The notes beneath the pieces are model-generated. The model was not told where the DNA came from and did no database searches. It saw nothing but the letters and a program-made list of their open reading frames with translations. From NCBI GenBank assembly GCA_046070685.1, contig JBJTMU010000010.1:18480-82479 (forward strand): a stretch of 64,000 nucleotides of DNA, written 5' to 3'. The translations under genes and the position numbers were made by a program. This DNA is from Flavobacteriales bacterium. GTDB taxonomy: Bacteria > Bacteroidota > Bacteroidia > Flavobacteriales_D > Crocinitomicaceae. This document shows positions 18,405 to 47,071 of the stretch, in pieces (position 1 is the first letter of the stretch; each line of letters starts with the position of its first letter).

Positions 18405-20558
18405 TTATTGTTTGGTATATTGGATGAGGTAGGAACCAAGGATGGTTGTGATGGAGTAGGCGTTAGTACCGAATGGACTTACCTGTATTTTTGTTTCTCC
18501 ATGACGTTCATTTTGGTCGCTATCTCGTCCGAGTTGATCGAATATAAATAATTCATTTTCAAGTGCATCAAGTACGCAAATAATAGGGGTCCCATTTTTC
18601 GAATTTTTGATGCTGATGGAACTGATTTCTTGCGCTGAAATGGTTTTTTCCCAGCGTATTTTCCCGGTAAGTTGATAAGCATATAATTCTTTTCCTCTCG
18701 TCAGTAAGAACACCAATTCTTTGTTTATTAAGTACGAACCTTGGAGTTTAACGTTGCTTTTGACGTTAAATTGTGAAGCTTTTCCATTTTTCAAATAGCT
18801 CAGACTACCATTTTTAATGGAAACAGGTAGTAATTCATTGCCTGTATTCACCAAATTGAATGTTGAGTCGATCGAAATTTTTGAAATTGTTTTTCGTTTT
18901 TCCAAATCGATGGTGTAATACATAGAATTAGTTAGGATGCCTAGCAATGGTTTTTTTGCTTTCGAGGTAACCTCCAATTGCTTGATGTCCCCTTGAACAG
19001 TAAATGGTTTTACAACGCTACCTTTGTCATTTAACAATTGCACAGAATGAGCTGAATTCGCTACAATGAATTCCAATTTATTTTTGAAAAAATAGGCGTT
19101 AGGCCTTACATGTGCGTCATTGGTCATACGGAACACAAGACGTCCTGTTTTATCAAATAGTTGGACTTCATTTGAAAATTGAACAGCGATAAAGGATTGA
19201 CCTACTTCAATCAAGTCCATTGAAAGTACTTCTTGAGAACAAGTTTTCTCCCATTTTTTCAAGCCATTAATGTAACCAACAAGTTTGTTTTTGTCTGTGT
19301 AGGCAATGACATTTCCTCGTTCAGGAAACGCAGCAAAATCCATTACACGTTCACCCGGATTCATCACAAAATAATCTTTCGTTTTTTGGGTGTCATTTTT
19401 TTCGACAACGTCAATTAAACGACAACTTGTTTCCAGGATTTTATTTCCATAAATGCTGATGGAAAGTTGACCTTTTCTTGATATTTGGCGCGAGGCAACT
19501 TTTTGAGGAAGTGATCCATAAATAAGCTTCATACGTTTTTCATCCTGCGAAAGCGTGTTGGCTAAATCGGCTTCTGAAATGACAAAATCGACCAGTTCTT
19601 TGGAGGATGAAACAACAGCTAATCCATTAGATATACTGATAAAAAGTTCAGGAGTTTGTTTACCTAAAATGGAAGAAAAAGATAATTTATTGTACACTTC
19701 ATTTTCTTCGTTACTCCCTTCTATTTGAAGGAGTTCATTCAGATTTTCTATTGGACTATTTTCTTCTTCATAGTCAAAAATGGCTGCTGAATTGGAATCT
19801 TTCGTGATAAATACAATGCCGTTCGCAATCATGTTTTTGGCAAATGGAGAACTGGCGAAAACAGGATCAATATGGGACAAATACGCGGTTTCGTAAAAGG
19901 CATACGAATCAATCATCGTAGGAATAAAAGGTGAAAAAATGCGTCGATCGTCAACTGCCTTAATGTGATTTTTCGAAATATAGCTTTTCGTATAGGAGTA
20001 AATTCGACCACTTTTTATATACATATCACTGATTCGAACCTTGGATTTATCTTTATGCAGAGAAATTTTGCTGAGGCTGGATTTATTGTCGAGTTGAAAG
20101 CTATTTGATAAAGGTGTATCTAACTCTCCATCATAAATTAATAGTTGATTTCCTTTATAAATCCCGTGTAATTTTCCATACTCAAAGGAGTTCAAGTCAC
20201 CGAGTTCCATTGGAAATAATCCATCTTTGAAAAGCGATTGGATTTCTCGTTTGTCCCATGATGTTCTTTTTTCAATGAGAAACAACATGCGTTTTGAACT
20301 AAAAATAAACGACGCTGGCTCTTTCATTCGTTGTTCGACCGATGAATAGATCGATTGATTCAGTGAAAGTGTTTGAATGCTGTGATCTGTCCAATTCACC
20401 TCTTCTGGGTGATGAATGGCCCAAATGAATCCATCCTTCTCATTAAAGTATGACCTAAAATCCTGGGCATTTTCTTTATGTAATAAGTTGTAGGAGACAA
20501 ATGCAATCCAAGAAAAAGCAAAGATGCCGAAAAGTACAAGAAAGATGCGTTTCATCAT
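18405..20558 (-). CDS. Hypothetical membrane-anchored protein (717 aa), beta-rich C-terminal half
   Basis: Single N-terminal TM (IFLVLFGIFAFSWIAFVSY). I recognise no family motif. Its stop is 3 nt from the start of the OmpA-family gene. Confidence 0.5.
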   Translation of the reverse strand: MMKRIFLVLFGIFAFSWIAFVSYNLLHKENAQDFRSYFNEKDGFIWAIHHPEEVNWTDHSIQTLSLNQSIYSSVEQRMKEPASFIFSSKRMLFLIEKRTSWDKREIQSLFKDGLFPMELGDLNSFEYGKLHGIYKGNQLLIYDGELDTPLSNSFQLDNKSSLSKISLHKDKSKVRISDMYIKSGRIYSYTKSYISKNHIKAVDDRRIFSPFIPTMIDSYAFYETAYLSHIDPVFASSPFAKNMIANGIVFITKDSNSAAIFDYEEENSPIENLNELLQIEGSNEENEVYNKLSFSSILGKQTPELFISISNGLAVVSSSKELVDFVISEADLANTLSQDEKRMKLIYGSLPQKVASRQISRKGQLSISIYGNKILETSCRLIDVVEKNDTQKTKDYFVMNPGERVMDFAAFPERGNVIAYTDKNKLVGYINGLKKWEKTCSQEVLSMDLIEVGQSFIAVQFSNEVQLFDKTGRLVFRMTNDAHVRPNAYFFKNKLEFIVANSAHSVQLLNDKGSVVKPFTVQGDIKQLEVTSKAKKPLLGILTNSMYYTIDLEKRKTISKISIDSTFNLVNTGNELLPVSIKNGSLSYLKNGKASQFNVKSNVKLQGSYLINKELVFLLTRGKELYAYQLTGKIRWEKTISAQEISSISIKNSKNGTPIICVLDALENELFIFDQLGRDSDQNERHGETKIQVSPFGTNAYSITTILGSYLIQYTKQ

Positions 20559-33634: not shown

Positions 33635-33734
33635 AGCACAAAGTTAGTTGTAATTGAGAATGGCGCACTAAAATCTCAAAACAATTTCAACACCTCATTA
33701 TGGAAAGAATCCGTTGATTGTTTACTTTTACACC

Positions 33735-34475
33735 ATGCGATTATACCTTACTTCTGACCAATTTATTGAAACAAGTGAACCTATTGATATTTCGATGAGC
33801 TTGCAAGCGAGCATAGAAAATGTTCGTGCATGGTATGTTGATCCACCGCGAATGGAGGTCGTTCGTGCCAATGGTTTTGTCGGAAGCATCCAAGAAGGAG
33901 GAAGTGTTAACTTTCGTGATGTTTTTTTTAACCCACATGGACATGGAACCCATACGGAATGTTGTGGACATATCACCCAAGAAGTATATGCGGTTAATGA
34001 AGTGTTGAAAGAGTATTTTTATCGTGCAACCTTGCTGACAATTCAACCGATTGTCTTGGAAAATGGCGATATGGTGGTGAAAGCAGAACAATTGAAAGAA
34101 TACCTAAATAAAGATTATTCGGAGGCAATCATCATTCGCACTCTACCGAATAAGTCAGCTAAAAAATCTAAAAATTATTCAGGTACAAATCCATGTTATT
34201 TTGATGTGAAAATCGTTGAATTATTGAATGAATATGGCGTGAAACATTTCTTAGTCGATCAGCCATCAGTGGACCGTGAAGAAGATGGAGGAGCGTTGGC
34301 ATTTCATCATGCTTTTTGGAATGTCCCAGAAAAACCAAATTTCGAACGAACCATTACAGAGTTGATTTATGTTCCAACTGAAGTTGAAGACGGAAACTAT
34401 ATCTTGGAAATTCAAATGGCGGCTTTTCAAAACGATGCCAGTCCTAGTCGACCTGTATTGTATAAACTGCAATAA
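33735..34475 (+). CDS. Cyclase-family (kynurenine/aryl-formamidase fold) protein
   Basis: Metal motif HGHGTHTECCGH is a variant of HxGTHxDxPxH. The start is taken at ATG 33735; the track start at 33714 is a TTG. Confidence 0.6.
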   Translation: MRLYLTSDQFIETSEPIDISMSLQASIENVRAWYVDPPRMEVVRANGFVGSIQEGGSVNFRDVFFNPHGHGTHTECCGHITQEVYAVNEVLKEYFYRATLLTIQPIVLENGDMVVKAEQLKEYLNKDYSEAIIIRTLPNKSAKKSKNYSGTNPCYFDVKIVELLNEYGVKHFLVDQPSVDREEDGGALAFHHAFWNVPEKPNFERTITELIYVPTEVEDGNYILEIQMAAFQNDASPSRPVLYKLQ

Positions 34476-34814: not shown

Positions 34815-34846
34815 AACAAAAAAGGCGCATAATTCGATGCGCCTTT
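34815..34846 (-). terminator. Intrinsic terminator after the YHYH/T9SS gene
   Basis: 10-bp stem AAAGGCGCAT / ATGCGCCTTT (34821-34830 / 34837-34846) followed by a T-rich run on the minus strand. Confidence 0.75.
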
Positions 34847-34864
34847 CCTTTTAATGGATTCTTT

Positions 34865-36220
34865 CTATTGCAGAACGATTTTTTTGGAACTACTTTGTCC
34901 CTTGATTTTAACATGGTAAATGCCTTTGTAAAGCACATCTGCGTTAAAATAGGCAATCGTACTTCCTTGAACGATTTGCTGTGTTTGAATTAGTTTGCCC
35001 AATGCATCGTATAATTCAACTGTTTGCGTTTGATTTGTTAAATCATTCAATTGAACCATAATGATATCGTTGCTTGGATTAGGATAAACAGACCAATCAT
35101 TTTCGTTTAATTCAATCAAACCAACATTTGATGTGTATGTCGTCACTGTCTCCGTAATAGAGCTTACTTTAGCAGCCGTCTTCACACCGTAAAAAGTGGG
35201 TCCAACAACATACGGATAAGCGGAATTCCATTGATCGTCAACAGTGGCGAAATAACAATAGATCCCATTTGGGTATTCCGGTGTAACACAAAATCGGCCA
35301 TTGTGAATGTCTAAAAAATCTCCTTCTGGATGACTGATAAATTCATAGTCTTCTCGAAAATAGCCCAAAGGATAAGTTGTACTTACCGCTGGACCATCTG
35401 GAACATCTGTTCCATCTGCCCAAATCGTTCGTGTGGATATATTTCGTAATTGATAACTTGATTTCATTCGGGTGATTCCACCTGATCCATCAACATTTTT
35501 GTAACCATAAGCTCCGTAAATAGGAAAACCATCGTATGCATAACCAATCAATGGTGAATGAACCATTGAGTCAATCACGTACAATCCATCGGCGTCATAT
35601 AAATCACAAACATTCGAAATTACGGTCAAATCGAGTTTAAATGCACTTGGATTTTGGTGATGGTGATAATTTCCTTGTGCAGGATGTCCTTTTGAACAAT
35701 CAAACCCTGGTTTTTCAGCTGGAACAGCATCTCTGTTCCATGGCATGTTCGCAGCGGGTCCTCCTGGACAAGGTGGATTTCCTGGGCCTCCACACAAGGC
35801 ATTCGTCGCGGTATTCCAAGCCACACCATCTCGGTAGTCAAACAAAGCGACGCCATTCACGAAAATCCCGATGTTTCCACCAGTAGTTGCGGTTAAGGTC
35901 CCTGTATTTTGTGCTGGATTTAACGGAATTTTAAAAATGGCATTTTGATTTGTCGCCAAAGATGGATTTCCATCCATAAATGGACCTGTTATGTAAGATG
36001 GTACGCCTGTTGTCGTCACATAGACCCAATTAGTGGAATATTGAACGTTTTGGACATTTGCTAACGTTGTTTCAATGATAGGTGTAGAATTACCTTGAAC
36101 ATAATGTCTTCCAGTTATTCCGGCCGTATTGATGAGCCAATGTTCAATGGCTGGATTCAATTGCGCTGATGCTTGCCATCCGCATGCAAACAAGAATAGA
36201 AATAGTGCATTTTTTCTCAT
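34865..36220 (-). CDS. YHYH-domain protein with T9SS C-terminal sorting domain
   Basis: Signal peptide. Motifs FDCSKGHPAQGNYHHHQNP and LDIHNGRFCVTPEYPNGIYCYFAT match the YHYH family pattern. The C-terminus VYPNPSNDIIMVQL...GIYHVKI...IVLQ is a type-A CTD. Confidence 0.75.
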   Translation of the reverse strand: MRKNALFLFLFACGWQASAQLNPAIEHWLINTAGITGRHYVQGNSTPIIETTLANVQNVQYSTNWVYVTTTGVPSYITGPFMDGNPSLATNQNAIFKIPLNPAQNTGTLTATTGGNIGIFVNGVALFDYRDGVAWNTATNALCGGPGNPPCPGGPAANMPWNRDAVPAEKPGFDCSKGHPAQGNYHHHQNPSAFKLDLTVISNVCDLYDADGLYVIDSMVHSPLIGYAYDGFPIYGAYGYKNVDGSGGITRMKSSYQLRNISTRTIWADGTDVPDGPAVSTTYPLGYFREDYEFISHPEGDFLDIHNGRFCVTPEYPNGIYCYFATVDDQWNSAYPYVVGPTFYGVKTAAKVSSITETVTTYTSNVGLIELNENDWSVYPNPSNDIIMVQLNDLTNQTQTVELYDALGKLIQTQQIVQGSTIAYFNADVLYKGIYHVKIKGQSSSKKIVLQ

Positions 36221-36249
36221 GGGTAAATAATTGTATTTAAAGTTAGAAG

Positions 36250-37293
36250 TTAATTTTTATCATTACTTGCGCTTCGCTCGTTTTTTGGAAACTTAAATGC
36301 CGGATTAAATAAAAACGTGGGGTCACTTAAGGTTTTTAAAAAGGCCAGTAAATCCTTTTGCTCATGGGCTGAAAGTGTGCGATTTAATTTCTTCAATTCT
36401 TTACTGTAATAAGTCTGATGAGAGTGTAGTTCTGCGTAATGAGACAGCACTTCTTTTAAACTTTTAAATCGTCCATCGTGCATATACGGGAAACTAAATT
36501 CAATATTCCGAAGGGTCGGTATTTTAAATAATAAGGAGTCCGATGCTCGATGCGTAATACCCATTCGACCCACATCCTTAAGCGCAGTTGAATACGGTAA
36601 GCCATTAGATTTAAATTCATTTTTGGTAAATAATGGTTCTTGATGACATGAAGCACAATACTTTTTGAAAAGCTGATAGCCTGATTTTTCTTGCGGAGAA
36701 AAGGAACTTTCTCCATTCTTTACGTGATCATACTTGGATTGAGCAGAAACCAACGACACCGTAAAATTTGCCAAAGCTTTGAGTAGATGGGAAGCTTCAA
36801 TCGCACTGTCGCCAAAAGCAGCATAAAATCTAGATCGATAAAATGTAGAGGCATTCAGTCGTCTTAATATTTCTTCAAGCGTATTGTCCATTTCCTTTGG
36901 ATGGGTGAGTGGATTGATGGCTTGTTTGTTTAGGGAACTAACTCCTCCATCCCAATGAAAAGAATTTTGCCAAGCAAGATTGATTAATACCGGAGCATTT
37001 CTGGTTCCTATTTGACCATCGATTCCATGACTGAGCGCGTGGTCAATGTGTGTGAATCCGGAATACTGCAAATGACAATTGGCGCATGAAATAGTGCTAT
37101 CTCTTGATAAATCAGGATCATAAAATAATGTTCGACCTAATTCAAATTTTTCTTCAGAAAGGGGATTGTACGAAAAATCATAGCTTGGTTTTGGCCATTT
37201 GGTGGGTATATAAAAAGGCGTGTCATTCCTCACACCTGCAAAGAAAAGAAGCAGTAAACAAAGGGATCCGAAAAACAAGGCAAATCTTTTCAT
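36250..37293 (-). CDS. Di-haem cytochrome c peroxidase/MauG-family enzyme (MbnH-like)
   Basis: Two CxxCH motifs (CANCH, CASCH), PTLRNIEFSFPYMHDG, and a size of 347 aa. Overlaps the upstream MbnP-like gene by 4 nt. Confidence 0.85.
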   Translation of the reverse strand: MKRFALFFGSLCLLLLFFAGVRNDTPFYIPTKWPKPSYDFSYNPLSEEKFELGRTLFYDPDLSRDSTISCANCHLQYSGFTHIDHALSHGIDGQIGTRNAPVLINLAWQNSFHWDGGVSSLNKQAINPLTHPKEMDNTLEEILRRLNASTFYRSRFYAAFGDSAIEASHLLKALANFTVSLVSAQSKYDHVKNGESSFSPQEKSGYQLFKKYCASCHQEPLFTKNEFKSNGLPYSTALKDVGRMGITHRASDSLLFKIPTLRNIEFSFPYMHDGRFKSLKEVLSHYAELHSHQTYYSKELKKLNRTLSAHEQKDLLAFLKTLSDPTFLFNPAFKFPKNERSASNDKN

Positions 37294-37940
37294 TCGGAAT
37301 AAAAATATGGGGAGAGTTTTTGGCAGTAATCTTTTGCTGTTTTTCCTGGAATCATTATTCGTTGAGCCTGCTGAAAGTCAACTGTGTTTTCAAAAAATGG
37401 TTTTAAATCGAGGATTAAATGAGTTCCTTTCAGGACTAATTCAACTGGTACCATGGTTTCATACGGTTGACGATAACCTCCTAAATGGTATTCAAATTGT
37501 TGGTCTGAAATAGGCAATGAAGAGGAAATACCGGTGCATTTAAATTGAATGTATCCAGAATTCCATGCCCAATACATGCCATTCATTGGATTAAGCGGAC
37601 CTTCGAGTATTTCTGAAACATGATATAAACTATCCATGCCAAAATGAAAGCTGATGGATTTGTAGTCTTTTACAGGGAAATCCTTAAAAATTGTCCAAGT
37701 GCTTGAATCTTCAGCATCGCAAAGAATTGGTTTAACAATGACTTGCTTTCTCCCTTCTTTTTCAAAAGTAAAGTCAGATAAATAGTATTTTATTTCTTGA
37801 AATGTCAGACTATCGGATCCTAGTTGGTACCATTTCCCCAAGGCAATTTCTTCAGTTCCCCAGTGCATCGAAACCTGTAATTGGGCAAAGGAATCAAGTT
37901 TAAAAACAAGTAGAAAACAAGAAAGAATCAGAAACTTCAT
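37290..37940 (-). CDS. MbnP-family protein (putative copper-binding partner of MbnH)
   Basis: Signal peptide. Motifs GMYWAWNSGYIQFKCTG and FEYHLGGY match the MbnP pattern I recall. It lies immediately upstream of, and overlapping, the di-haem peroxidase gene. Confidence 0.75.
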   Translation of the reverse strand: MKFLILSCFLLVFKLDSFAQLQVSMHWGTEEIALGKWYQLGSDSLTFQEIKYYLSDFTFEKEGRKQVIVKPILCDAEDSSTWTIFKDFPVKDYKSISFHFGMDSLYHVSEILEGPLNPMNGMYWAWNSGYIQFKCTGISSSLPISDQQFEYHLGGYRQPYETMVPVELVLKGTHLILDLKPFFENTVDFQQAQRIMIPGKTAKDYCQKLSPYFYSE

Positions 37941-38374
37941 CGCTTTTTAGTTGGCATTGGCTTGCCAGCCATTTCAATCATTCGACGGATCACGCGTTTC
38001 AATGCTTTTTTTTCTTGAGGATTACATTTTTCATTCACCCGAATAAAATGATTAAACGTGCAAGAATCGATTTGAAATTGAATGCGACTAATTTCTTCAA
38101 ATAGTTGTTGGTTTTTCGTTGAATGTGTTGCCGAAATACTAACTTTTTTTCGCAGGGATTTTTGCTGAGCTAAAAGTTTTTGTTTTTCCTGGATGTGTCG
38201 TTTGAATTCATGGTCCACCCAGCGAGCATTTTCACCTTTCATTCCGAGCGCCACACTTAATTTTGGCGGATGAGGAGGCATGTGATGCAGTCCTCTCGGA
38301 CACGAAAAAAGGAAGATGACGTTCAATATGACGATGATTCCTAAACAAACTAATAAAATACGATTCGTTTTCAT
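37937..38374 (-). CDS. Small envelope protein, possible Spy/CpxP/ZraP-like periplasmic metal sensor
   Basis: N-terminal hydrophobic segment with LFSC lipobox, His/Met/Pro patch LHHMPPHPP, and a helical Lys/Gln-rich body. Confidence 0.4.
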   Translation of the reverse strand: MKTNRILLVCLGIIVILNVIFLFSCPRGLHHMPPHPPKLSVALGMKGENARWVDHEFKRHIQEKQKLLAQQKSLRKKVSISATHSTKNQQLFEEISRIQFQIDSCTFNHFIRVNEKCNPQEKKALKRVIRRMIEMAGKPMPTKKR

Positions 38375-38384
38375 GCTTCTTGAA

Positions 38385-38615
38385 TTACATTGTCAGGTTT
38401 GAGCCAAAATTAGCATATTGTGTTTCAAAAATCTGATCCTCGTTCCATTTTTCTTTTGCGGACAGAAAATAAATCACATTGAACACAATCAAGGCACTCG
38501 TCAGGATACTGACAAGAACAGTTCGTGTTTTTATTTTTTGAACATAAACGGGACTCTTCAAAAGTTGCTCGTGAAGTTTGGCGCTTACTTCAATGATTTC
38601 AGTGGTTGGTTTCAT
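38385..38615 (-). CDS. 76-aa single-TM protein, candidate anti-sigma factor
   Basis: Cytoplasmic N-terminal ~35 aa, then TM VLVSILTSALIVFNVIYFL. It lies directly downstream of the ECF sigma gene. Confidence 0.4.
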   Translation of the reverse strand: MKPTTEIIEVSAKLHEQLLKSPVYVQKIKTRTVLVSILTSALIVFNVIYFLSAKEKWNEDQIFETQYANFGSNLTM

Positions 38616-38663
38616 GTGGAATATGTGTTTATTTGGATGTCTTTTAGCTTGTTAACTTGTGGA

Positions 38664-39236
38664 TTAAAGCCAGTTTTTTAGAATAGGATCCTTCAGTTGT
38701 TTGATTAATTGTTGCTTTGCTCGAAAAATGAGAGATTCCACTGCGGATAAGGATAACTGCATACTCTCACTAATTTCTAAGTAGCTGAATTGTTCAAAAT
38801 GATGTAAACTATACGCCACTCGTTGGTTTTCAGCTAATCGTTGTAAGGCGGTAAAAAAGACTTTTGCTCGTTCGGTTTCCATTAATTTTTCTTCCGGATT
38901 AAGCTCCCCTTGATCAGGAAATTGAATCAACGTTTCATCGATTTGAACGTGGATGCCAAAGCGTTTTTTTCGCCTTGCTCGTCGCATATATTCGAGGCAT
39001 TTATTCAAGGTAATCCGATGAATCCAAGTGGAAAGTTGCGACTCCCCTTTGAATGAATGCATGGACTGATAAATGGCAATAAAGATGTCTTGAGTGGCAT
39101 CTTCTGCTTCTTCTCGATTTTGCAACAAATGCCAACACATATTCAGGACTTTTTTTTCAAAGTGTTGAACCAACAATTCAAAGGTTTGAATGTCGCCTCG
39201 TTGCAAAGAAAGAATGTCTATTTCGACCGGCATCAT
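38664..39236 (-). CDS. ECF-type RNA polymerase sigma-70 factor
   Basis: Region 2 (EDATQDIFIAIYQSMHSFKGESQLSTWIHRITLNKCLEYMR) and region 4 (FSYLEISESMQLSLSAVESLIFRAKQQL). Confidence 0.9.
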   Translation of the reverse strand: MMPVEIDILSLQRGDIQTFELLVQHFEKKVLNMCWHLLQNREEAEDATQDIFIAIYQSMHSFKGESQLSTWIHRITLNKCLEYMRRARRKKRFGIHVQIDETLIQFPDQGELNPEEKLMETERAKVFFTALQRLAENQRVAYSLHHFEQFSYLEISESMQLSLSAVESLIFRAKQQLIKQLKDPILKNWL

Positions 39237-39272: not shown

Positions 39273-39722
39273 TTATTCAAAGAAAAGTCGACCATTTAAC
39301 CATTCAGGATCTAAAATAGCGTGTTGTTTTTGATAGAATCGGATGGCCGGTTCATTCCAATCCAGGACTTGCCAATCCATTCGTTTTACCTGTTTCCTCT
39401 TTGCCACGCGAAGGACTTCATCAAATAATAATTGTCCAACACCTAATTTCCTTTTGGACTCTTTCACGTAAAAATCTTCTAGATACAAACAAGCTCCTTT
39501 CCAAGTAGAGTAGGAGGTGTAGTATAAAGCAAACCCAATAATCTCTGAATCAATTTCTGCGACTATGGCTTCACAAAGTTGCTTGTCAAATAAATCAATG
39601 GAAAGTTGATTTTCTGTATTGCTTACCTGTTCAGGTGCTTTTTCATAGATGGCCAATTCTTGAATCAAGCCAAAAATAGCGGAAACATCAGATACTTGTG
39701 CAGGGCGTATTTTTGGTTCCAT
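39273..39722 (-). CDS. GNAT-family N-acetyltransferase
   Basis: 149 aa. The acetyl-CoA motif region reads RKLGVGQLLFDEVLRVAKRK. Its ATG overlaps the sprA stop (TAATG). Confidence 0.8.
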   Translation of the reverse strand: MEPKIRPAQVSDVSAIFGLIQELAIYEKAPEQVSNTENQLSIDLFDKQLCEAIVAEIDSEIIGFALYYTSYSTWKGACLYLEDFYVKESKRKLGVGQLLFDEVLRVAKRKQVKRMDWQVLDWNEPAIRFYQKQHAILDPEWLNGRLFFE

Positions 39723-42700
39723 TATTTCAATCCGTTCAAATCGAATCGCAATGTGATTCCTGTTTTTAAATTCCCCGTTGGATAACTGATAAAAACCTTC
39801 GGTGTATTCAGGAACTGTTCGTAATAGAAAATGGCACTTAAATGGTCGGACAACTTATAGTTTGCATCCAATTTAAAACTAACCGTTGTTTGACCGGCTG
39901 TTGCCTGGTTCGTTTGCTCAATGACTTTTCGAATCACCGTTGAATTGTCACGGAAGGAGAAATTAATATTGATTAATAAGTCACTTGGTTTTAAGCTGCG
40001 AACTGGTAATTTTAATTTTGGAACATTGATCACAGTTCCAACCACGATTTCTTTCCCTAGTACCTCGGTTACTTGGTTGTTATTCAAGGAAAGTGTCGTC
40101 TGACGATCTTTCTTATACTCAAAGTTTGTGGTAATATTTTTTCCAAGGATGTTCCAAGTTGCCAACATTCCAATGAGAGGGGAGAAGCGCTCAGAAATCG
40201 TAATATTTTGAATTTGCATCGGTGCAATAAAGTTGTTGTTTATGTCTTGAGCAGTCGCGTGTCCGTTCGCATCAACAGTCGCATTTAAATTGGTTTGCAT
40301 GCCGTTTACTGTCACTGAGGAAGAATAGCCATGGTTTAATTTAAATGATTTCACCACATCTTTGGCAAAGGCAAATTTGGATAATCCATTGTAATTGATG
40401 GTCCAGTTTGGCATAGGAACATTTGACAATGGATGAATGGATTTTGAATCAATGGATGAATTTGTGTAGGCTGTTAAGAATGCGCCCATGACAACTTCTT
40501 GTTGAGATCCTGAGTAACCACTATAATAACCATTTGGCAACAAAGTTGCATTTGGATTTTGTGAACCTAACAATTGTGAAACTTGCTGGCGGTTGTTCAA
40601 CATGTTTTGGAAGACAGTTGAAGAGAAATTTGCGCCTTCTTTGATAAATGCCGATCCCCAAGTCACAGTTGTATATGTCAAGGTACTTGTTTCGAATTTA
40701 CTTTGACTTTCGAATGCATTTGTGGTCGAATTCCAACGATAGAATTCTCCAGAATTCGCACTATAATTTCGACTTAAATTTAAGTTCACGTTCAAGTCTT
40801 TAATTGGTTCTAAAGTAGCTTTCAATTGAAGATTCGCCGTATGAGTTGTGGTAAATTGTTTATTCAAGTTCTCATTCTGAACGAGCCATTGATTGTCCCG
40901 TGCAAGTGTACTCACATTGTATCCGTTGCTTCTTCCAAGTAAATCATATCCTTGTTTTCCGAAAACAAAAGCGGACATCCCAAGACTTGAACCGTTCATT
41001 CCAAGTATGCTTGATTCTTGATTGTATCCTGGAAGCATCGTTCCATCTGTTAAGGCATATGTTCCAGAGACATTTCTAACACTCATAATTAAGCGTGCAA
41101 TAAAGCCACCAATTGGATTCACTTTTTCTTTTTCCTTATCCTTGATTTCTTGCAGACGTAATTGTTTGCGGTCAAAACGTTTTTTCTGACGTTCGTATTG
41201 CTTCAATTCTTTTTCCGTCATCTCCTCCACCGGTTTCTCAGGTTTGAATTCCGGTAGTTTTGCTGGTCCTGGTTTTGGTTTTGCTGCACCATCTCCGCCT
41301 TCGCTTCCAACTTTGGAATTAACGGCTCCCTTCATTCCTTTGCCATCGGATAATACACGTTTGAAATAGGGAACTTTGTTGTAAAGTGTCACCAAATTTC
41401 CTTGAAGCGTCATGTTGATGGTTCTGTTGTTTTGAATGGTATTTCCAAATGGCGCTTGACCAAGTGGTGCGCGTTGCCAGTTGAATGTTCCGGCATATTT
41501 CGCATTGGCAGTAATCCAGCTGGTCAATGGGAATTTATCTAATGGGATATTATAGCTCACACTGTAATTGTGGGTGTAATCCATGGTACGTCCAAAGGTG
41601 TTCATTTGCGAACGAATGGTATCCATGAATTCACGGTATCCTGCAGGATTTGTCACGCGATCCACGCCATGATTTCCTTCCACAAAGATCGATTTGTTCG
41701 TCGCGCTAAATGTCGCTTTTAAGTTTTTCGTTAAATCATATCCAACCTGATAGTTGCGATTCCAATCAAATCGTTTTAAGTAAATCGGGTCAAATTGATA
41801 GGTTGGAACGACAATATTTCGCACTTGACGCTCATTGTAAATTCTCGAGTAATCGTTCGTAAATGTGATGTTTTTAGGTAATAAGAATAGGTTAAATTCT
41901 TTCACCCATTTTAACCAAGGGGATTTTTGAACAGGCTCCCATTTTTTGAATGGTTCAAATGCTTTTCCTGCAAACGTATAATTGTAATTCAATGCACCTG
42001 TCCAAGTTTTTGTACGGTCAGCTGTGATATTGAAATCGTGTTTGAGATTTTCAGCAAAGGCATAAGTCGCTGACCAATTGGAAATACTCCAGAATTGAGC
42101 TTTCGTCCCTGCTTTCGCTTCTTTACGCACATTTGTAAAGTTATACGATCTGCGCTCAGTGAAATCTTGTCCTAATTTTGCTCGTTCTCTACGGGTCGCC
42201 ATATCATAACTTGACAGTTTGATATCTGGATTGAATGGATCGTATTCAGGATTGATTAATCCCAATGAATAGCCATAGAAGAATGGAAGTGAAACTCGTG
42301 CTTGTTTCCCGAAGAATTGACCCAACTGAACAGTGGTATTCATGTCGAATCCGATTTTCTGATTACGTTGACGATCTTGAACTCGGCTATCTACGCTTCC
42401 CCAATTGATACCTGAGTAATTTCCGGAAGCAGAAACATTGGCGAAATCAGCTAATTGAACTTGCATTTGTCCAATCGCAGCATCCCCACCATCGCTGACG
42501 AAATCAGTTAAACGTAACTCATTCACCCATACATTTACACATTCTGCATCTCCTGCATCTGGTTGCCAAATATTGTCTGGATCTGTTTTTAATGGATTTC
42601 GAACACCAATCATGATGGTTCTAATTCCTTGTAAATTTGGACTTCCCTTAACTTTTAATTTTCTTTGAGCATTTTGAGGATCCGTGATTTCGTACTCATT

Positions 42701-45700
42701 GATATAGGAAACGCCTGGCGCCCCTTGCTCCACTTTCTTGTTTCTTTCGGTCTTCAGATTGAGTAAATCATCAAATATAATTTCGACATTATTCAATTCC
42801 GGCCAAATCGTTTCTGGGTTTGTCGCTCCCCAATCAGTCACTTTTAATGGAAGTTCATACTCATAGTAATTCTCCACATAATCCGTTCCCAATCGAATGA
42901 AAACAGACAATTCATTTTCTTTTAATTGATTTTGTACCACTGATTCTGCGTGTACAAACATTTTTAGTTTTTTGTACGTGCGCACATCAAATTGAACATT
43001 ACGGTAAGCCGCTCTTGCATCACCATCTTGCAAATTACAAACCTCTAATACAAGTGATTGTTCATTCATTTGACGTTGGTACACTTGTGATGGATCGATT
43101 TCACGAGTAATCCCTGGAGGGATAACATAATTAATCGGTTGACGCTGTCCATTTTCCTCGATGTTCAATGCGGCAATATTGAAGGTCGTTAAATTTGGAT
43201 CAGTTTGAACACTCAATCCTGGTTGATTTAAATCTTGACTGTAACGACGCCATTCACCGCGAATTAATTCCAATCGAGCAAAGCGAAGAACCACTTCTTC
43301 ATCAAAGTTTTTCAAGTACATGCGCATGAAACGAATCGAACGAAAATCTTGGATGCCATTCACGCGTTTTTCAAATGCTTTTACCGGCACTTTGAATTGA
43401 TACCATGTTTCGGTTTTTGTTCCGTTTTGGTACACTTGTTTATTCGTGATAAAATTATTTCCAACTTGTTGAAGATCATTTGGACGCATGCTCACGTGGT
43501 ATTGGAAATAACTTTCACTTTCCGCCAAGTTATTATCCTGATTAATGTCTTCGTTGTCTGGTTGATTACTTGCTTGTGTTGGATATCCAGCTTGATTCGC
43601 GGTATCGGACATGGCAGAAGTCGGAGAGTTACCTTCCATGCCATTGTAACGCTTATAACGTTTGAGAATGTTCAATTGCTCGCTATCGTAGTTGTCATCT
43701 AAATAATACGTATAATCATCGTTCGATGGATCGGCAATCATTCTTGCTTTAGTTGCGGCATTCAGTGTTGGATTGTTTTGAACCCAATTAACATAGGCTT
43801 GATGTGCAGTCACTTCTTGGTTATCTTTCCACCCATCGATACCAACGTCTTGATTGACACGCGCTGCCGGATCATTATCAAAAGCATTCACCACAATTTG
43901 CTGAGTTGAAATGCGTGACCACGCCGTTGTATCCATATTATCGGTTAACGGAACATCAGTAGTTGGAGGGAGTCCATTTTCGAAACTTTTACGAGAATCA
44001 GGTAATACATCTTCCGAAATATTTCCCAGGTTAAAGTAAAGATCTCCACCAGTGTGAAGGGTATTTGGGTTAGCGTTTTCGGCATCTTCATTGAATGGAT
44101 CAAGTACCCAAAACTGAATGAATTCAATATTTGCTACTTCAAAGTCATTCGTGGTGAGTCCGCGCATAATTCCACCCCAGCGATTTTCCGGATTCGTAAA
44201 ATAACCCAAGGAATCAATAGTACTCGTTGTGTCGTAATTGTACATTCCACGTTCTGACGGATAATACGCCAATTCCAAGATGGGAATATTTTGAATGGAA
44301 CCGTATTGCTGTTGTAAATTCGGGAAGATGTCCACTTGATTGACCAAACGCATACGGCTATCTGTTAACATAGCTGGATTTTGCTTGATGTGTTGTGGCG
44401 TTAAAGATGTACTTTGATAGAACACTGGATCAATCGTGTACCAAACTGCTTTTGCACGTTTAAAGCCTGAATTCAGTTTTTTTGAACTTGCTTCTGGAAA
44501 TAAATCGGGTTGACCTTGTGGGATAGATGCCATTCTCCATGCGGAAAATTGGCGCAAATCGATGGCACTTTGACTTGCTTCAAAATCGTCCACATAAGAA
44601 GTTCCTGATTTATTGATGGCCTTTGGTTGACCAGGAATCAAATGAGCATATTCACCCGTTAAGGAAATGGTGGACATTTGATTGGTTGAAATCACTGGAA
44701 GTAAGTCCACCAATTTGGTTAAAATAGGCACGTTTGAACGGAAAGAGAAGTCTGTTCCTAAGATGGTATTTTTGAATGGTTCATTTCCAAAGTCGACTTT
44801 TTGTGTCACTGGTCGCTCCATCATTCGGATAGCCGTTGCACCGATTTTGAAGTTTTCGTTTAAACGATATTGGTAATGTCCACCCATCATTGAACGAGCC
44901 TGGAATCCAAAGACAGAGTTACTTTCGATGGTGATTTTAATAGGTGTATTTGACTCTAGAATTCCGGTATTCAAGATTTTTACTCGGCTGAATGCGTAAT
45001 CAACCGTATAATCAGTTCCTTCAATCAATCTGATTCCTCCCGCTGTTACAACGACTGCTCCTTGCGGGATGTTCATGACATTTAACGGAATTTCGGAACT
45101 AACAGAAGATTGAAATTCTCCTTTAAAAACAAAACGATTCTTACTAGGAATCTGTTGTGCTGCAGTTTTGGTTGAATCGTAAAGTTCAGTGTAGGCAATT
45201 TTATTGATATTCACCTGTGGAATCCCCACATCAGCTAATTTAGCTGCTAATGTTTTCCCAAAAGGCTCAACGGTGCTAAAGAAAATGCGTCCATTTTTCT
45301 TGTTAATCGTTCCTCCGTTGTCAATTTTGTTTCCAACCACATTAAATGGCGCAAAATCAAAAACACCATCCGAAAAAGGTTGGTTGTTTTGATTGATTTT
45401 ATCCATGTCTAACAAGGTCACAATTTGTTTTTTATCCACCCCAGGGAATGGCATAAACGGTTGAAGTAAAGAGGTTTCTTTGTTGTTGTAGTAAACATCA
45501 ATTTTGAAACCTAATTGATCAACTTGGTAAGCTCCAATGGAGTAAACGTTTTTCATCATCAAATCCCAAATTTTATTTTTTGGATTCGTGATGGTTGGTT
45601 TAATTAATTTAAGAATCAATGCTTGCTGACCACTTGCGCCATCTGTAGAGAATTCTCCTACCTGATAGGTCTGACCACGATACGTGTATTCATAGGCCAC

Positions 45701-47071
45701 AGCAAGGACTTCATCGTTATTCAAAGCGTTATTGAGGGAGATATATCCCAAAAGAGAGTTGTATGTAAATTCTGCTTCCGTCAGTTTTCGAGCATTCTCA
45801 ACTTTTTCAAAATCAATTGCTTGACGAAAAGGACCTGGAGCATTCACTTGTGTGGAAAGCGCTGTCACCGAATTTACGAAGCTTCGAACCATTGGTTGAT
45901 TTGCAGCCCAATCGTATAATCCGTTTGCTTGATTATCTGGAATTTCTGAACCGGCATAAGATCCGGGGCTACCTTGACAGTTGATAGGAAGGGCTTCACC
46001 TAAATCGGAGAATGCAACGATGTTACGAGTGTTCTCCGTATTACTCGTTCGATTCGTTACCCAAACTTCAATTCTCGTGATAAACATCGTCGAATTCACC
46101 ATTGGAAGAGTCGACATGGCGGTATCGTAATGTTGTTGATGATAAAGGTTTAAGAAGTAATGTTTGTTTGCTTCATAGTTATCAGCAGTAATTTCAAATT
46201 TTTGAATTTGTGCTTTTCCGGTGACGTTGATTTCAGTTCGTTTTCCTTTCGAAGCTGCAGCAATTAAATCTACTGTTGAACGACCAAATTTTAATTGTGT
46301 TTTAACACCAAATAACGTTTGGGATCCTTGAATTAGCGAAGTAGGAAGATCCAAAGTGACATTTCCGAGGGCAAGTTTTTGCAATATTTCATCCTCTTTA
46401 CCAGTATGCTCTATTTTAGAAATATTTTCGAAGTCAAAATTGGCTGCGGTATTGTATTTCATATTCAATTTCATCTTGGTCCCGATTTGACCAGTGATGT
46501 CCATATTGATGTTCTGATTGAAGTCGAAACGTGTAATATTGCGTTGCCTCATGGGAAGCAAAGGGTTATCTACACGAGAGTGATTGAGTCCGAGTGAAAG
46601 TTCTAAATTCCCTCCAGGAATAATTTTAATTTCATCCGAACCGAAAATACTTGAAAAGGCTTTACTTCCAATTTTTATAGGAAGTTCAAACGCGCGATTT
46701 TCACTCGATTGTTTTTCGATGAATTCTTGCCAATCCATTTTGGCAGATTTTTTCTCATTGTAATCCAAGTAATCCTCCAAGCTCATCATGGACGGATTTC
46801 GGTACAACAAGCCATTTTTACCTAATGTTTCTTTGAAGACATATTGACCTGTTTCCGGATCGAAAACAATGGTTTGCTGCATGGAAGTTGGATCTCCAAG
46901 GTCAAAACTTTGCGGTAAATTTTGGTAAGGGTTAAGTGGATTAAAAATGGGGAAAGGTAAATTTACTCCATTTTGCGCCTTCAAATTACTATGAAAAATG
47001 AACACAAACAAAGCCAAGTAAATAGCTTTTATTCCCTGCATTCGTTTCATTAAGTTTAGTAGTTTAGGCAC
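39722..47071 (-). CDS. sprA: T9SS translocon SprA (Sov)
   Basis: 2449 aa with a signal peptide. The N-terminus LPFPIFNPLNP...FDLGDPTSMQQTIVFDPETGQYVF and the overall size and composition fit SprA. Confidence 0.9.
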   Translation of the reverse strand: MPKLLNLMKRMQGIKAIYLALFVFIFHSNLKAQNGVNLPFPIFNPLNPYQNLPQSFDLGDPTSMQQTIVFDPETGQYVFKETLGKNGLLYRNPSMMSLEDYLDYNEKKSAKMDWQEFIEKQSSENRAFELPIKIGSKAFSSIFGSDEIKIIPGGNLELSLGLNHSRVDNPLLPMRQRNITRFDFNQNINMDITGQIGTKMKLNMKYNTAANFDFENISKIEHTGKEDEILQKLALGNVTLDLPTSLIQGSQTLFGVKTQLKFGRSTVDLIAAASKGKRTEINVTGKAQIQKFEITADNYEANKHYFLNLYHQQHYDTAMSTLPMVNSTMFITRIEVWVTNRTSNTENTRNIVAFSDLGEALPINCQGSPGSYAGSEIPDNQANGLYDWAANQPMVRSFVNSVTALSTQVNAPGPFRQAIDFEKVENARKLTEAEFTYNSLLGYISLNNALNNDEVLAVAYEYTYRGQTYQVGEFSTDGASGQQALILKLIKPTITNPKNKIWDLMMKNVYSIGAYQVDQLGFKIDVYYNNKETSLLQPFMPFPGVDKKQIVTLLDMDKINQNNQPFSDGVFDFAPFNVVGNKIDNGGTINKKNGRIFFSTVEPFGKTLAAKLADVGIPQVNINKIAYTELYDSTKTAAQQIPSKNRFVFKGEFQSSVSSEIPLNVMNIPQGAVVVTAGGIRLIEGTDYTVDYAFSRVKILNTGILESNTPIKITIESNSVFGFQARSMMGGHYQYRLNENFKIGATAIRMMERPVTQKVDFGNEPFKNTILGTDFSFRSNVPILTKLVDLLPVISTNQMSTISLTGEYAHLIPGQPKAINKSGTSYVDDFEASQSAIDLRQFSAWRMASIPQGQPDLFPEASSKKLNSGFKRAKAVWYTIDPVFYQSTSLTPQHIKQNPAMLTDSRMRLVNQVDIFPNLQQQYGSIQNIPILELAYYPSERGMYNYDTTSTIDSLGYFTNPENRWGGIMRGLTTNDFEVANIEFIQFWVLDPFNEDAENANPNTLHTGGDLYFNLGNISEDVLPDSRKSFENGLPPTTDVPLTDNMDTTAWSRISTQQIVVNAFDNDPAARVNQDVGIDGWKDNQEVTAHQAYVNWVQNNPTLNAATKARMIADPSNDDYTYYLDDNYDSEQLNILKRYKRYNGMEGNSPTSAMSDTANQAGYPTQASNQPDNEDINQDNNLAESESYFQYHVSMRPNDLQQVGNNFITNKQVYQNGTKTETWYQFKVPVKAFEKRVNGIQDFRSIRFMRMYLKNFDEEVVLRFARLELIRGEWRRYSQDLNQPGLSVQTDPNLTTFNIAALNIEENGQRQPINYVIPPGITREIDPSQVYQRQMNEQSLVLEVCNLQDGDARAAYRNVQFDVRTYKKLKMFVHAESVVQNQLKENELSVFIRLGTDYVENYYEYELPLKVTDWGATNPETIWPELNNVEIIFDDLLNLKTERNKKVEQGAPGVSYINEYEITDPQNAQRKLKVKGSPNLQGIRTIMIGVRNPLKTDPDNIWQPDAGDAECVNVWVNELRLTDFVSDGGDAAIGQMQVQLADFANVSASGNYSGINWGSVDSRVQDRQRNQKIGFDMNTTVQLGQFFGKQARVSLPFFYGYSLGLINPEYDPFNPDIKLSSYDMATRRERAKLGQDFTERRSYNFTNVRKEAKAGTKAQFWSISNWSATYAFAENLKHDFNITADRTKTWTGALNYNYTFAGKAFEPFKKWEPVQKSPWLKWVKEFNLFLLPKNITFTNDYSRIYNERQVRNIVVPTYQFDPIYLKRFDWNRNYQVGYDLTKNLKATFSATNKSIFVEGNHGVDRVTNPAGYREFMDTIRSQMNTFGRTMDYTHNYSVSYNIPLDKFPLTSWITANAKYAGTFNWQRAPLGQAPFGNTIQNNRTINMTLQGNLVTLYNKVPYFKRVLSDGKGMKGAVNSKVGSEGGDGAAKPKPGPAKLPEFKPEKPVEEMTEKELKQYERQKKRFDRKQLRLQEIKDKEKEKVNPIGGFIARLIMSVRNVSGTYALTDGTMLPGYNQESSILGMNGSSLGMSAFVFGKQGYDLLGRSNGYNVSTLARDNQWLVQNENLNKQFTTTHTANLQLKATLEPIKDLNVNLNLSRNYSANSGEFYRWNSTTNAFESQSKFETSTLTYTTVTWGSAFIKEGANFSSTVFQNMLNNRQQVSQLLGSQNPNATLLPNGYYSGYSGSQQEVVMGAFLTAYTNSSIDSKSIHPLSNVPMPNWTINYNGLSKFAFAKDVVKSFKLNHGYSSSVTVNGMQTNLNATVDANGHATAQDINNNFIAPMQIQNITISERFSPLIGMLATWNILGKNITTNFEYKKDRQTTLSLNNNQVTEVLGKEIVVGTVINVPKLKLPVRSLKPSDLLININFSFRDNSTVIRKVIEQTNQATAGQTTVSFKLDANYKLSDHLSAIFYYEQFLNTPKVFISYPTGNLKTGITLRFDLNGLK

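Follow-up and report, generated by a model that had tools for sequence, protein, structure and literature searches.

A six-gene operon of the Bacteroidota associates an MbnP/MbnH-like pair and a predicted T9SS-exported YHYH protein with an ECF sigma factor and three candidate promoters

Introduction

How is a protein that requires a metal or cofactor loaded before it leaves the cell through the type IX secretion system (T9SS)? This question, which has received little attention, is raised by a six-gene operon in a 64,000-nucleotide stretch of DNA (hereafter, the window) from contig JBJTMU010000010.1 of a Flavobacteriales bacterium in the Crocinitomicaceae family. In order, the operon encodes a predicted extracytoplasmic function (ECF) sigma factor, a 76-aa single-pass membrane protein, a 145-aa protein assigned to the Spy/CnrX superfamily, an MbnP-like protein, an MbnH/MauG-like di-heme enzyme and a YHYH-domain protein bearing a T9SS sorting domain.

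The operon brings together MbnP/MbnH (MbnPH) and YHYH in many Bacteroidota species, in association with one sigma factor and a clearly readable promoter motif. To our knowledge, the Trp-to-kynurenine chemistry that builds the MbnP/MbnH copper site is known from one methanotroph pair only. The YHYH domain defines a large family with members among bacteria, phages and eukaryotic algae, for which the operon provides a first testable functional context. Here we present evidence that this locus may constitute a self-contained sigma factor regulon combining both systems, and we weigh the explanations that could account for their association.

Results

The operon comprises six consecutive genes on the minus strand, spanning positions 34865–39236 in the open reading frame (ORF) listing of the window. 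An initial annotation of this DNA had described a packed, same-strand array ending at a strong terminator, and the listing bears out its coordinates, overlaps and 10–48-nt gaps. The gene for the 145-aa protein overlaps the MbnP gene by 4 nt (37937–37940), which in turn overlaps the di-heme enzyme gene by 4 nt (37290–37293), and spacers of 48, 10 and 29 nt separate, respectively, the sigma factor and 76-aa protein genes, the 76-aa and 145-aa protein genes, and the di-heme enzyme and YHYH genes. The proposed terminator was also confirmed: an intrinsic-terminator-like hairpin (34818–34849, minus strand), with a 13-bp stem (five of the pairs being G-C) around a 6-nt loop and with a T run, lies directly 3' of the YHYH gene and is the strongest structure of this kind in the region. 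An Rfam STnc40 match over this hairpin was sub-threshold and taken as chance, and the Rfam scan of the operon region returned no genuine RNA family. Searches with Pfam hidden Markov models (HMMs) recovered the families that had been proposed, namely an ECF sigma factor, MbnP, CCP_MauG and YHYH followed by a T9SS tail, with the Sigma70_r2/r4_2, MbnP, CCP_MauG, YHYH and Por_Secre_tail domains all scoring above gathering thresholds, and the motifs previously singled out (GMYWAWNSGYI, FEYHLGGY, CANCH and CASCH) are present and conserved.

To survey conservation of the operon, one genome per species was scanned with an MbnP-like profile, which yielded 558 relatives, and the best 80 loci were examined. 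All of these best 80 loci belong to metagenome-assembled genomes (MAGs) of Bacteroidota, and the carriers include many freshwater Bacteroidota. The order sigma factor, small transmembrane protein, LTXXQ-family protein, MbnP, MbnH and YHYH recurs in MAGs of Crocinitomicaceae, other Flavobacteriales and Saprospiraceae/Lewinellaceae. Wherever no contig end interrupts the locus, MbnP and MbnH are direct neighbors. The sigma factor lies upstream of MbnP in 62 of the 70 loci with enough sequence, and of 58 loci at least 49 have YHYH downstream. Among the 49 fully covered loci, 35 contain the complete set of six genes in compact form and in this order, 15 of them with flanks unlike those of the window, and four more metagenome contigs contain the six genes within yet other flanks. 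The recurrence of gene order, which the initial annotation had proposed as a check, was thus confirmed in dozens of loci with unrelated flanks. MbnP, MbnH and YHYH also occur together without the sigma factor, the small transmembrane protein and the LTXXQ-family protein (hereafter, the trio), and in one locus (L081) the order is changed to YHYH-MbnP-MbnH with YHYH still linked. Because of these and other variant loci, we regard MbnPH as the core of the module, and the trio and YHYH as frequent, separable components.

The product of the first gene (38664–39236, minus strand; 190 aa) matches the Pfam models Sigma70_r2 (58 bits, 8e-16), Sigma70_r4_2 (50 bits, 2e-13) and Sigma70_ECF (2e-5), with regions 2 and 4 matched and no match to region 3. 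Its best NCBIfam resemblance is to RpoE/SigW-type ECF sigma factors, all below equivalog cut-offs. On these matches, it is assigned to the ECF (group IV) sigma-70 factors.

Alignment of the regions upstream of the sigma factor gene across loci revealed a bipartite motif, GCAAGTTT-N-CATCTAA, with the core form AAGTT-N16-TCTAA, which was searched for as CAAG-N18-TCTAA. RpoE-type ECF promoters combine an AAC-like -35 element and a TCTAA -10 element at 16-nt spacing, all of which are matched by this motif, and the Escherichia coli sigmaE consensus (GGAACTT-N16-TCTAA) has the same spacing as AAGTT-N16-TCTAA. The search form has exactly two matches on both strands of the 64-kb window (0.42 expected), and both are associated with the operon. 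The first (P1; 39242–39268, minus strand) fills the spacer between a GNAT acetyltransferase gene and the sigma factor gene, and ends 5 nt before the ATG of the latter; the other (P3; 36243–36269, minus strand) overlaps the final codons of the di-heme enzyme gene, 22 nt before the YHYH ATG. A third site with one mismatch (P2, CAAG-N18-TCCAA; 38633–38659, minus strand) lies in the spacer between the sigma factor and 76-aa protein genes, 17 nt before the ATG. When a position weight matrix (PWM) built from 43 sites in relatives was scored over the whole window, the three top scores were those of P3 (27.9), P2 (19.1) and P1 (16.4), in that order, at the only three true intergenic spacers of the operon.

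The distribution of the motif in related loci follows the same pattern. Using the PWM, it was detected upstream of the sigma factor gene in 43 of 63 loci, of the small transmembrane protein gene in 43 of 62 and of the YHYH gene in 57 of 62, and upstream of the 145-aa protein, MbnH and GNAT genes in 4 of 64, 3 of 78 and 0 of 25 loci, respectively. A relaxed form of the motif precedes the sigma factor, transmembrane protein and YHYH genes in 36–58% of loci when searched as a regular expression and in 68–92% with the PWM, and hardly ever precedes the 145-aa protein, MbnP, MbnH or GNAT genes, against a background rate of 1.3%. The motif before YHYH is kept even in loci without a nearby sigma factor. 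Antisense matches within the YHYH coding sequence were dismissed as a by-product of its conservation. An ECF-type promoter in the style of autoregulation thus appears to precede the sigma factor gene, which its own product may use. The promoter motifs constitute the strongest computational evidence that the operon is a single sigma factor-controlled unit of which YHYH is a principal output, a well-supported conclusion at the level of sequence, and they give substance to the sigma factor control proposed in the initial annotation.

Two further observations concern these sites. The -10 element of P1 lies only 5 nt from the annotated ATG of the sigma factor gene (39242–39236, minus strand), and because of this distance the sigma factor mRNA would be leaderless or nearly so, or translation would start at the second Met codon. 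The fourth-best PWM site of the whole window (18603–18635, minus strand) scores 15.8, a value comparable to that of P1, the next best scoring 8.8. It falls within a 717-aa ORF, toward its 3' end, approximately 200 nt upstream of a gene encoding an 855-aa OmpA-family protein (15834–18401) with apparent thrombospondin-type-3-like repeats, as read from the translation, and could mark a further regulon member or have arisen by chance.

The MbnP-like protein (37290–37940, minus strand; 216 aa) has a Sec signal peptide (SFA/Q) and matches Pfam PF20243 with 118.5 bits (E-value 4e-34; cut-off 27). In MbnP, a WxW motif holds the Trp that is converted to kynurenine (PMC11951088). The corresponding W124-A-W126, within GMYWAWNSGYI, is invariant across 67 homologs, as are M122 and H152, which are candidate Met/His copper ligands. 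HMMER searches against the PDB returned no match, even with a 16-sequence profile and an E-value of 10. An AlphaFold2 model computed from the alignment of the 67 homologs reached a predicted local distance difference test score (pLDDT) of 90.1, and Foldseek comparison of this model with the PDB returned only the six chains of MbnP 7L6G (E-values 2e-7 to 1e-6; template modeling scores 0.55–0.58; ~17% identity), the next PDB match having an E-value of 0.5. The modeled structure therefore provides good support for an MbnP fold and, by analogy with Methylosinus MbnPH, the protein may form kynurenine and bind copper.

The adjoining gene (36250–37293, minus strand) encodes a 347-aa protein with a signal peptide, a CCP_MauG domain (PF03150; 183 bits, 5.5e-54) and two heme motifs, CANCH (70–74) and CASCH (213–217); both CxxCH motifs and W114 are invariant in its orthologs. 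Its PDB matches are 3o5c (5e-48), 1iqc (5e-45) and MbnH 6e1c (2e-41). In pairwise alignments, Tyr286 ('SHYAEL') aligns with the Tyr of MbnH 6e1c ('DIYSE') and sits at the Met-ligand position of the bacterial cytochrome c peroxidases (bCcPs) 3o5c and 1iqc ('NTM' and 'ETM'), residues that we take to be the axial ligands in these reference structures. Tyr286 is kept in 72 of 73 complete orthologs, and the alignments give good support to a Tyr heme ligand of the MauG/MbnH type and not to the ligation of detoxifying bCcPs. The enzyme adjoins its MbnP partner in 78 of the 80 loci, the remaining two being truncated by contig ends.

The last gene (34865–36220, minus strand; 451 aa) encodes a protein with a signal peptide (ASA/Q), a YHYH domain at approximately residues 96–331 (PF14240; 196 bits, 6e-58) and a T9SS type-A sorting domain at residues 378–451 (PF18962, 48.9 bits, 8e-13; TIGR04183, 45.6 bits, 5e-12), which identify it as a predicted, exported T9SS type-A cargo. 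It is the best conserved member of the module (65–86% identity vs 33–63% for MbnP) and presents a conserved His3/Asp set, GHP...YHHH...HSP...YDG...LDxHNGR. H160, H167, H202, D211, D272 and D285 (mature-domain numbering) are invariant in 52 diverse YHYH proteins, and the protein contains many invariant Trp, Tyr and His residues. The domain thus combines a strong HMM match to PF14240 with the His triad and Asp reported for this family by Iyer et al. 2021, and differs from typical members in its YHHH motif, in consisting of a single domain followed by a T9SS tail, and in its ties to MbnPH and to an ECF promoter. The family is large, with 2251 clusters at 50% identity, and sequence searches of the PDB returned only matches to the sorting domain. 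Domain scans of 52 of the closest proteins revealed fusions to adhesin, surface and glycan-related domains, namely FG-GAP, SprB, Ig, Calx-beta, dockerin/cohesin, sulfatase and BACON. A link of YHYH to MbnPH, to an ECF promoter or to copper handling in the Bacteroidota was not found in a full-text literature search that did not extend to the main MbnPH papers. The conserved residues point to a metalloprotein, with copper as a candidate metal.

Two YHYH variants were observed near MbnPH in other loci (L068:13614–16532 and L073:9562–13363). One carries an N-terminal sulfatase domain and SprB repeats (973 aa), and the other (815 aa) contains four BACON repeats, with another YHYH paralog, of the plain type, encoded after it.

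The remaining two genes encode candidate regulators of the sigma factor. The 76-aa protein (38385–38615, minus strand) is predicted to have an N-in cytoplasmic helix of ~32 aa, one transmembrane helix and a periplasmic tail of ~23 aa ending in a conserved motif, QYANFGS. Its counterparts, ORFs of 65–115 aa with one central hydrophobic helix, occupy the same position in 62 loci, and the family shares an N-terminal helix of the pattern R-x-E-V-S-x-x-L-x-x-[KR]-L and, in the C-terminal tail, a conserved aromatic motif. The window copy has no Pfam match, 6 of 23 orthologs have weak DUF3379 matches, and a sequence search of the PDB with the family returned nothing meaningful. From its position and topology, we consider it a candidate anti-sigma factor.

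The gene for the 145-aa protein (37937–38374, minus strand) is translationally coupled to MbnP through their 4-nt overlap. Homolog searches by sequence returned six close matches only, and the analysis was based on positional orthologs from 65 loci. The window copy alone has no significant match in Pfam or NCBIfam. Among 28 orthologs, eight match PF13801 Metal_resist (best 2.9e-11) and three match LTXXQ, and the family profile matches Spy (3oeo; E-value 0.005) over residues 26–140, nearly its full length. These matches place the protein in the Spy/CpxP/ZraP/CnrX (Metal_resist/LTXXQ) superfamily, and the Spy/ZraP-like identity guessed initially therefore holds at the family level. Two other features of the initial annotation did not withstand comparison with the orthologs. 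Where the presumed lipobox (LFSC) has its Cys, the orthologs carry E, V, Q, L or other residues, so the protein was no longer read as a lipoprotein, and the HHMPPHPP patch is kept only as PPK/PPS outside close relatives. Since the hydrophobic N-terminal helix is conserved while the Cys is lost, the protein is read as membrane-anchored like CnrX, and by analogy it is a candidate periplasmic sensor or modulator.

Discussion

The reading that we prefer, to which we attach about even confidence, is that the operon forms a self-contained ECF sigma factor regulon with a payload composed of periplasmic MbnP and MbnH and a T9SS-exported YHYH metalloprotein. The single-pass 76-aa protein would keep the sigma factor captive at the inner membrane, and the membrane-anchored 145-aa protein would modulate this hold from the periplasm, in analogy with CnrH-CnrY-CnrX and CpxP. 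The signal perceived by the latter would most plausibly be a metal, namely copper, or the extent to which the exported cargo is folded or metallated. Once freed, the sigma factor would read the three conserved AAGTT-N16-TCTAA promoters, with P1 directing expression of the sigma factor itself, P2 that of the 76-aa and 145-aa proteins and of the MbnP/MbnH pair, and P3 giving extra drive to YHYH. The di-heme enzyme, through its His/Tyr heme, would turn a Trp of the MbnP WxW motif into kynurenine which, together with the invariant Met and His, would build the MbnP copper site, assuming the chemistry of Methylosinus MbnPH. YHYH would cross the periplasm, where T9SS cargo folds, before export, and MbnP, as a periplasmic copper donor, would load its His3/Asp site at this stage, which is the weakest step of the mechanism. 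Since the module comes without an outer-membrane importer, periplasmic metallation or maturation of YHYH is favored over extracellular capture; metal would most likely flow from MbnP to YHYH before export, scavenging by YHYH outside the cell being less likely. Sigma factor control, the MbnP fold and MauG-type heme ligation are well supported; we infer the anti-sigma role, the signal, the use of kynurenine-copper chemistry by this subfamily and, most of all, that MbnP and YHYH are functionally linked.

Several observations weigh against this reading. The MbnP-like protein scores 29.7 bits against the NCBIfam equivalog TIGR04052, for a cut-off of 140, and the di-heme enzyme scores 210 bits against MbnH TIGR04039 (cut-off 363) and 195 bits against MauG TIGR03791 (cut-off 444). 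MbnH TIGR04039 is nevertheless the best-scoring NCBIfam model for the enzyme and, since both proteins fall far short of their equivalog cut-offs, the pair is best considered a distant MbnP/MbnH subfamily. On the regulatory side, an HMM scan found no ASD, CnrY, zf-HC2 or RskA similarity in the 76-aa protein family. The 28 orthologs of the 145-aa protein share only N18, H60 and F110 as invariant residues, and show no evident CnrX-type ligand set (His, His, Glu, His, Met). Consequently, the protein is not considered a CnrX ortholog and, having a single invariant His, it may be a chaperone or adaptor and not a metal sensor. In some lineages, the genes from sigma factor through MbnH are followed by housekeeping genes in place of YHYH. 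For YHYH, the AlphaFold2 model of the domain, built from input homologs all at least 69% identical, has a pLDDT of 39.8, domain scans of 52 of the closest proteins found no fusion to a copper domain, and the 'enigmatic' YHYH domain has been predicted to be a His3/Asp metal hydrolase binding Zn (Iyer et al. 2021; PMC7824862).

We also tentatively entertain the possibility that, in the Bacteroidota, YHYH is an extracellular metalloenzyme dependent on copper or on kynurenine or another oxidized residue, for which MbnP would serve as copper donor and MbnH as activator or modifier before T9SS export, with one sigma factor coordinating all components through three promoters. If true, maturation of a YHYH metalloenzyme by MbnPH would be the first function ascribed to YHYH, the first role of MbnPH beyond settings with methanobactin or a TonB-dependent transporter (TBDT), and the first case of a T9SS cargo with a metallation or post-translational modification pathway dedicated to it.

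The closest point of reference for the payload is the MbnP/MbnH pair of Methylosinus trichosporium OB3b (7L6G, 6E1C), reportedly described by Kenney in 2019 and Manesis in 2021. The operon shares with it the MbnP fold, the WxW motif and an adjoining, co-translated MauG-like His/Tyr enzyme encoded in the same order. In contrast with Methylosinus MbnP, the MbnP-like protein is 216 aa long (vs ~290 aa), with 16–17% identity and no HMMER similarity to 7L6G, and the locus lacks a methanobactin operon or TBDT, the partners being YHYH and the CnrX/Spy-family trio.

The initial annotation had regarded a link between ECF sigma factors and MbnPH as undescribed. Such a link is already published for the FecI/FecR/TBDT type, in which MbnPH pairs lie beside MbnI (ECF), MbnR (FecR) and MbnT (TBDT) (Kenney & Rosenzweig 2013; PMC3621798), and MbnPH-like genes are also known from copper-regulated operons (PMC9426467). 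Elsewhere, MbnPH genes thus lie in settings of copper homeostasis (PMC3621798, PMC9426467), in keeping with the preferred reading. As in the MbnI/MbnR/MbnT arrangement, an ECF sigma factor and a membrane regulator are encoded here beside MbnPH. Unlike it, the operon encodes neither a FecR-domain protein nor a TBDT transducer, the regulators are the 76-aa and LTXXQ-family proteins, and the sigma factor is RpoE/SigW-like and not FecI-like. The novelty hence lies in the type of ECF system and not in the association of ECF with MbnPH.

In this respect, the trio resembles the CnrH-CnrY-CnrX system of Cupriavidus metallidurans and the ECF281/ECF290 groups. In ECF281/ECF290, the gene at position +2 encodes a heavy-metal-resistance protein; CnrH itself falls in ECF291 (PMC7826278). 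The shared elements are an ECF sigma factor, a very short single-pass anti-sigma factor (here a candidate) and a Metal_resist (PF13801) family member of ~145 aa that is periplasmic and anchored in the membrane. The differences are the order, which is sigma-Y-X and not Y-X-sigma, outputs that are not an efflux pump, the lack of CnrY, zinc-finger or RskA similarity in the 76-aa protein, and a CnrX His/Glu/Met set that is not evident.

An alternative that we deem unlikely is that YHYH, instead of or besides MbnP, is the substrate of the MauG-like enzyme, an aromatic residue being oxidized in the periplasm to a cofactor or a kynurenine metal site. No other member of the operon is as conserved as YHYH, which has its own sigma-type promoter and many invariant Trp, Tyr and His residues, and stays with MbnPH when the order changes in L081, a locus that also encodes a T9SS-tailed CCP_MauG protein. 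This arrangement would parallel MopE/MCA2590 and CorA/CorB of gammaproteobacterial methanotrophs, in which a surface or secreted kynurenine-copper protein is encoded beside a di-heme peroxidase; MopE is surface-associated or secreted, and paired with a di-heme cytochrome c peroxidase (CCP) (PMC3621798, PMC11951088). The likeness consists of a surface or secreted metal protein co-encoded with a di-heme CCP/MauG-like enzyme, with kynurenine-copper chemistry, putative here, in the envelope, whereas the YHYH sequence is unrelated, its export is by T9SS and a separate MbnP-fold protein is also present. That MbnP keeps the WxW, Met and His residues invariant and is translationally coupled to the enzyme makes it, however, the obvious substrate. 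In addition, the YHYH family is widespread, and the absence of di-heme fusions in scans of 52 of its closest members, which covered domain content and not gene neighborhoods, suggests that the YHYH fold does not in general need a di-heme enzyme.

It also seems improbable that the trio is a generic, Spy/CpxP-like envelope-stress module, with a di-heme protein acting mainly as a periplasmic peroxidase and MbnP and YHYH as unrelated, stress-induced envelope proteins. The operon would in that case serve defense against oxidative or envelope stress and would not be a copper system. The top PDB sequence matches of the di-heme protein are the canonical peroxidases 3o5c and 1iqc, the 145-aa family profile matches the chaperone Spy without a conserved set of metal ligands, and the sigma factor resembles RpoE/SigW-type stress sigma factors. 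The heme ligand, however, is predicted to be Tyr, as in MauG/MbnH, and not Met, as in detoxifying bCcPs, the enzyme invariably has an MbnP-fold partner encoded by an overlapping gene, and MbnP, MbnH and YHYH travel together also in loci devoid of the trio.

Lastly, the T9SS type-A sorting domain and conserved His cluster of YHYH, together with the association of methanotroph MbnPH genes with copper import systems (PMC3621798), would fit the direction of flow suggested in the initial annotation, with a surface-bound or released scavenger that passes copper inward to periplasmic MbnP from an operon switched on at copper limitation, but this is very unlikely, since none of the examined loci encodes a TBDT or porin within the module or beside it, leaving no evident route back across the outer membrane, and the YHYH family looks enzyme-like (PMC7824862) or adhesin-associated.

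Variant loci and genomic neighborhood

Departures from the standard arrangement were observed in several of the surveyed loci. In the lineage represented by L053 (7318–7878), L050 and L058, the sigma factor gene directly precedes MbnP, with a 90-nt gap and without the small transmembrane and LTXXQ-family protein genes, and YHYH lies 0.4–0.7 kb after MbnH with its promoter motif kept, which suggests that the sigma factor link outlasts the loss of the putative anti-sigma pair. One subclade, loci L030–L033 and L040 (e.g., L031:6102–7304), encodes an additional 400-aa, T9SS-tailed BNR/Sortilin-type beta-propeller between the sigma factor and the transmembrane protein. In L040, the 145-aa protein gene and MbnP are also separated by two ORFs, of which one is beta-propeller-like. 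The second CCP_MauG protein of L081 (585–1979, minus strand) carries a T9SS sorting domain and would thus be an exported di-heme enzyme, reminiscent of the surface di-heme peroxidase that partners MopE in Methylococcus. The MAGs of L011, L001, L023 and others bear titles such as Polynucleobacter meluiroseus, Chryseobacterium gleum and Chitinophaga pinensis, which probably reflect placeholder or mis-binned taxonomy.

Downstream of the operon lie a convergent cyclase-family gene and a glycyl-tRNA synthetase gene. The convergent gene (33714–34475, plus strand), located 390 nt past the operon, belongs to the Cyclase family PF04199, and its sole NCBIfam match is to arylformamidase, or kynurenine formamidase (TIGR03035; 39 bits vs a cut-off of 223), a curious neighbor for a putative kynurenine-forming system. 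Its product has no signal peptide, and the gene is syntenic only in close relatives (L001–L017, L021, L025 and L026). Because of these features and its convergent orientation, a role in deformylating N-formylkynurenine was set aside.

Upstream, the GNAT acetyltransferase gene is separated from the sigma factor gene by a 36-nt spacer, and a gene encoding a 2449-aa protein (39722–47071, minus strand) lies 0.5 kb from the operon. We take this protein to be the T9SS translocon SprA, on the basis of its length and because it is conserved among Bacteroidota relatives. The sprA-GNAT-operon synteny is observed in Crocinitomicaceae-like genomes (L001–L029, L037, L039 and L056), and is a clade-specific arrangement that is lost in distant carriers.

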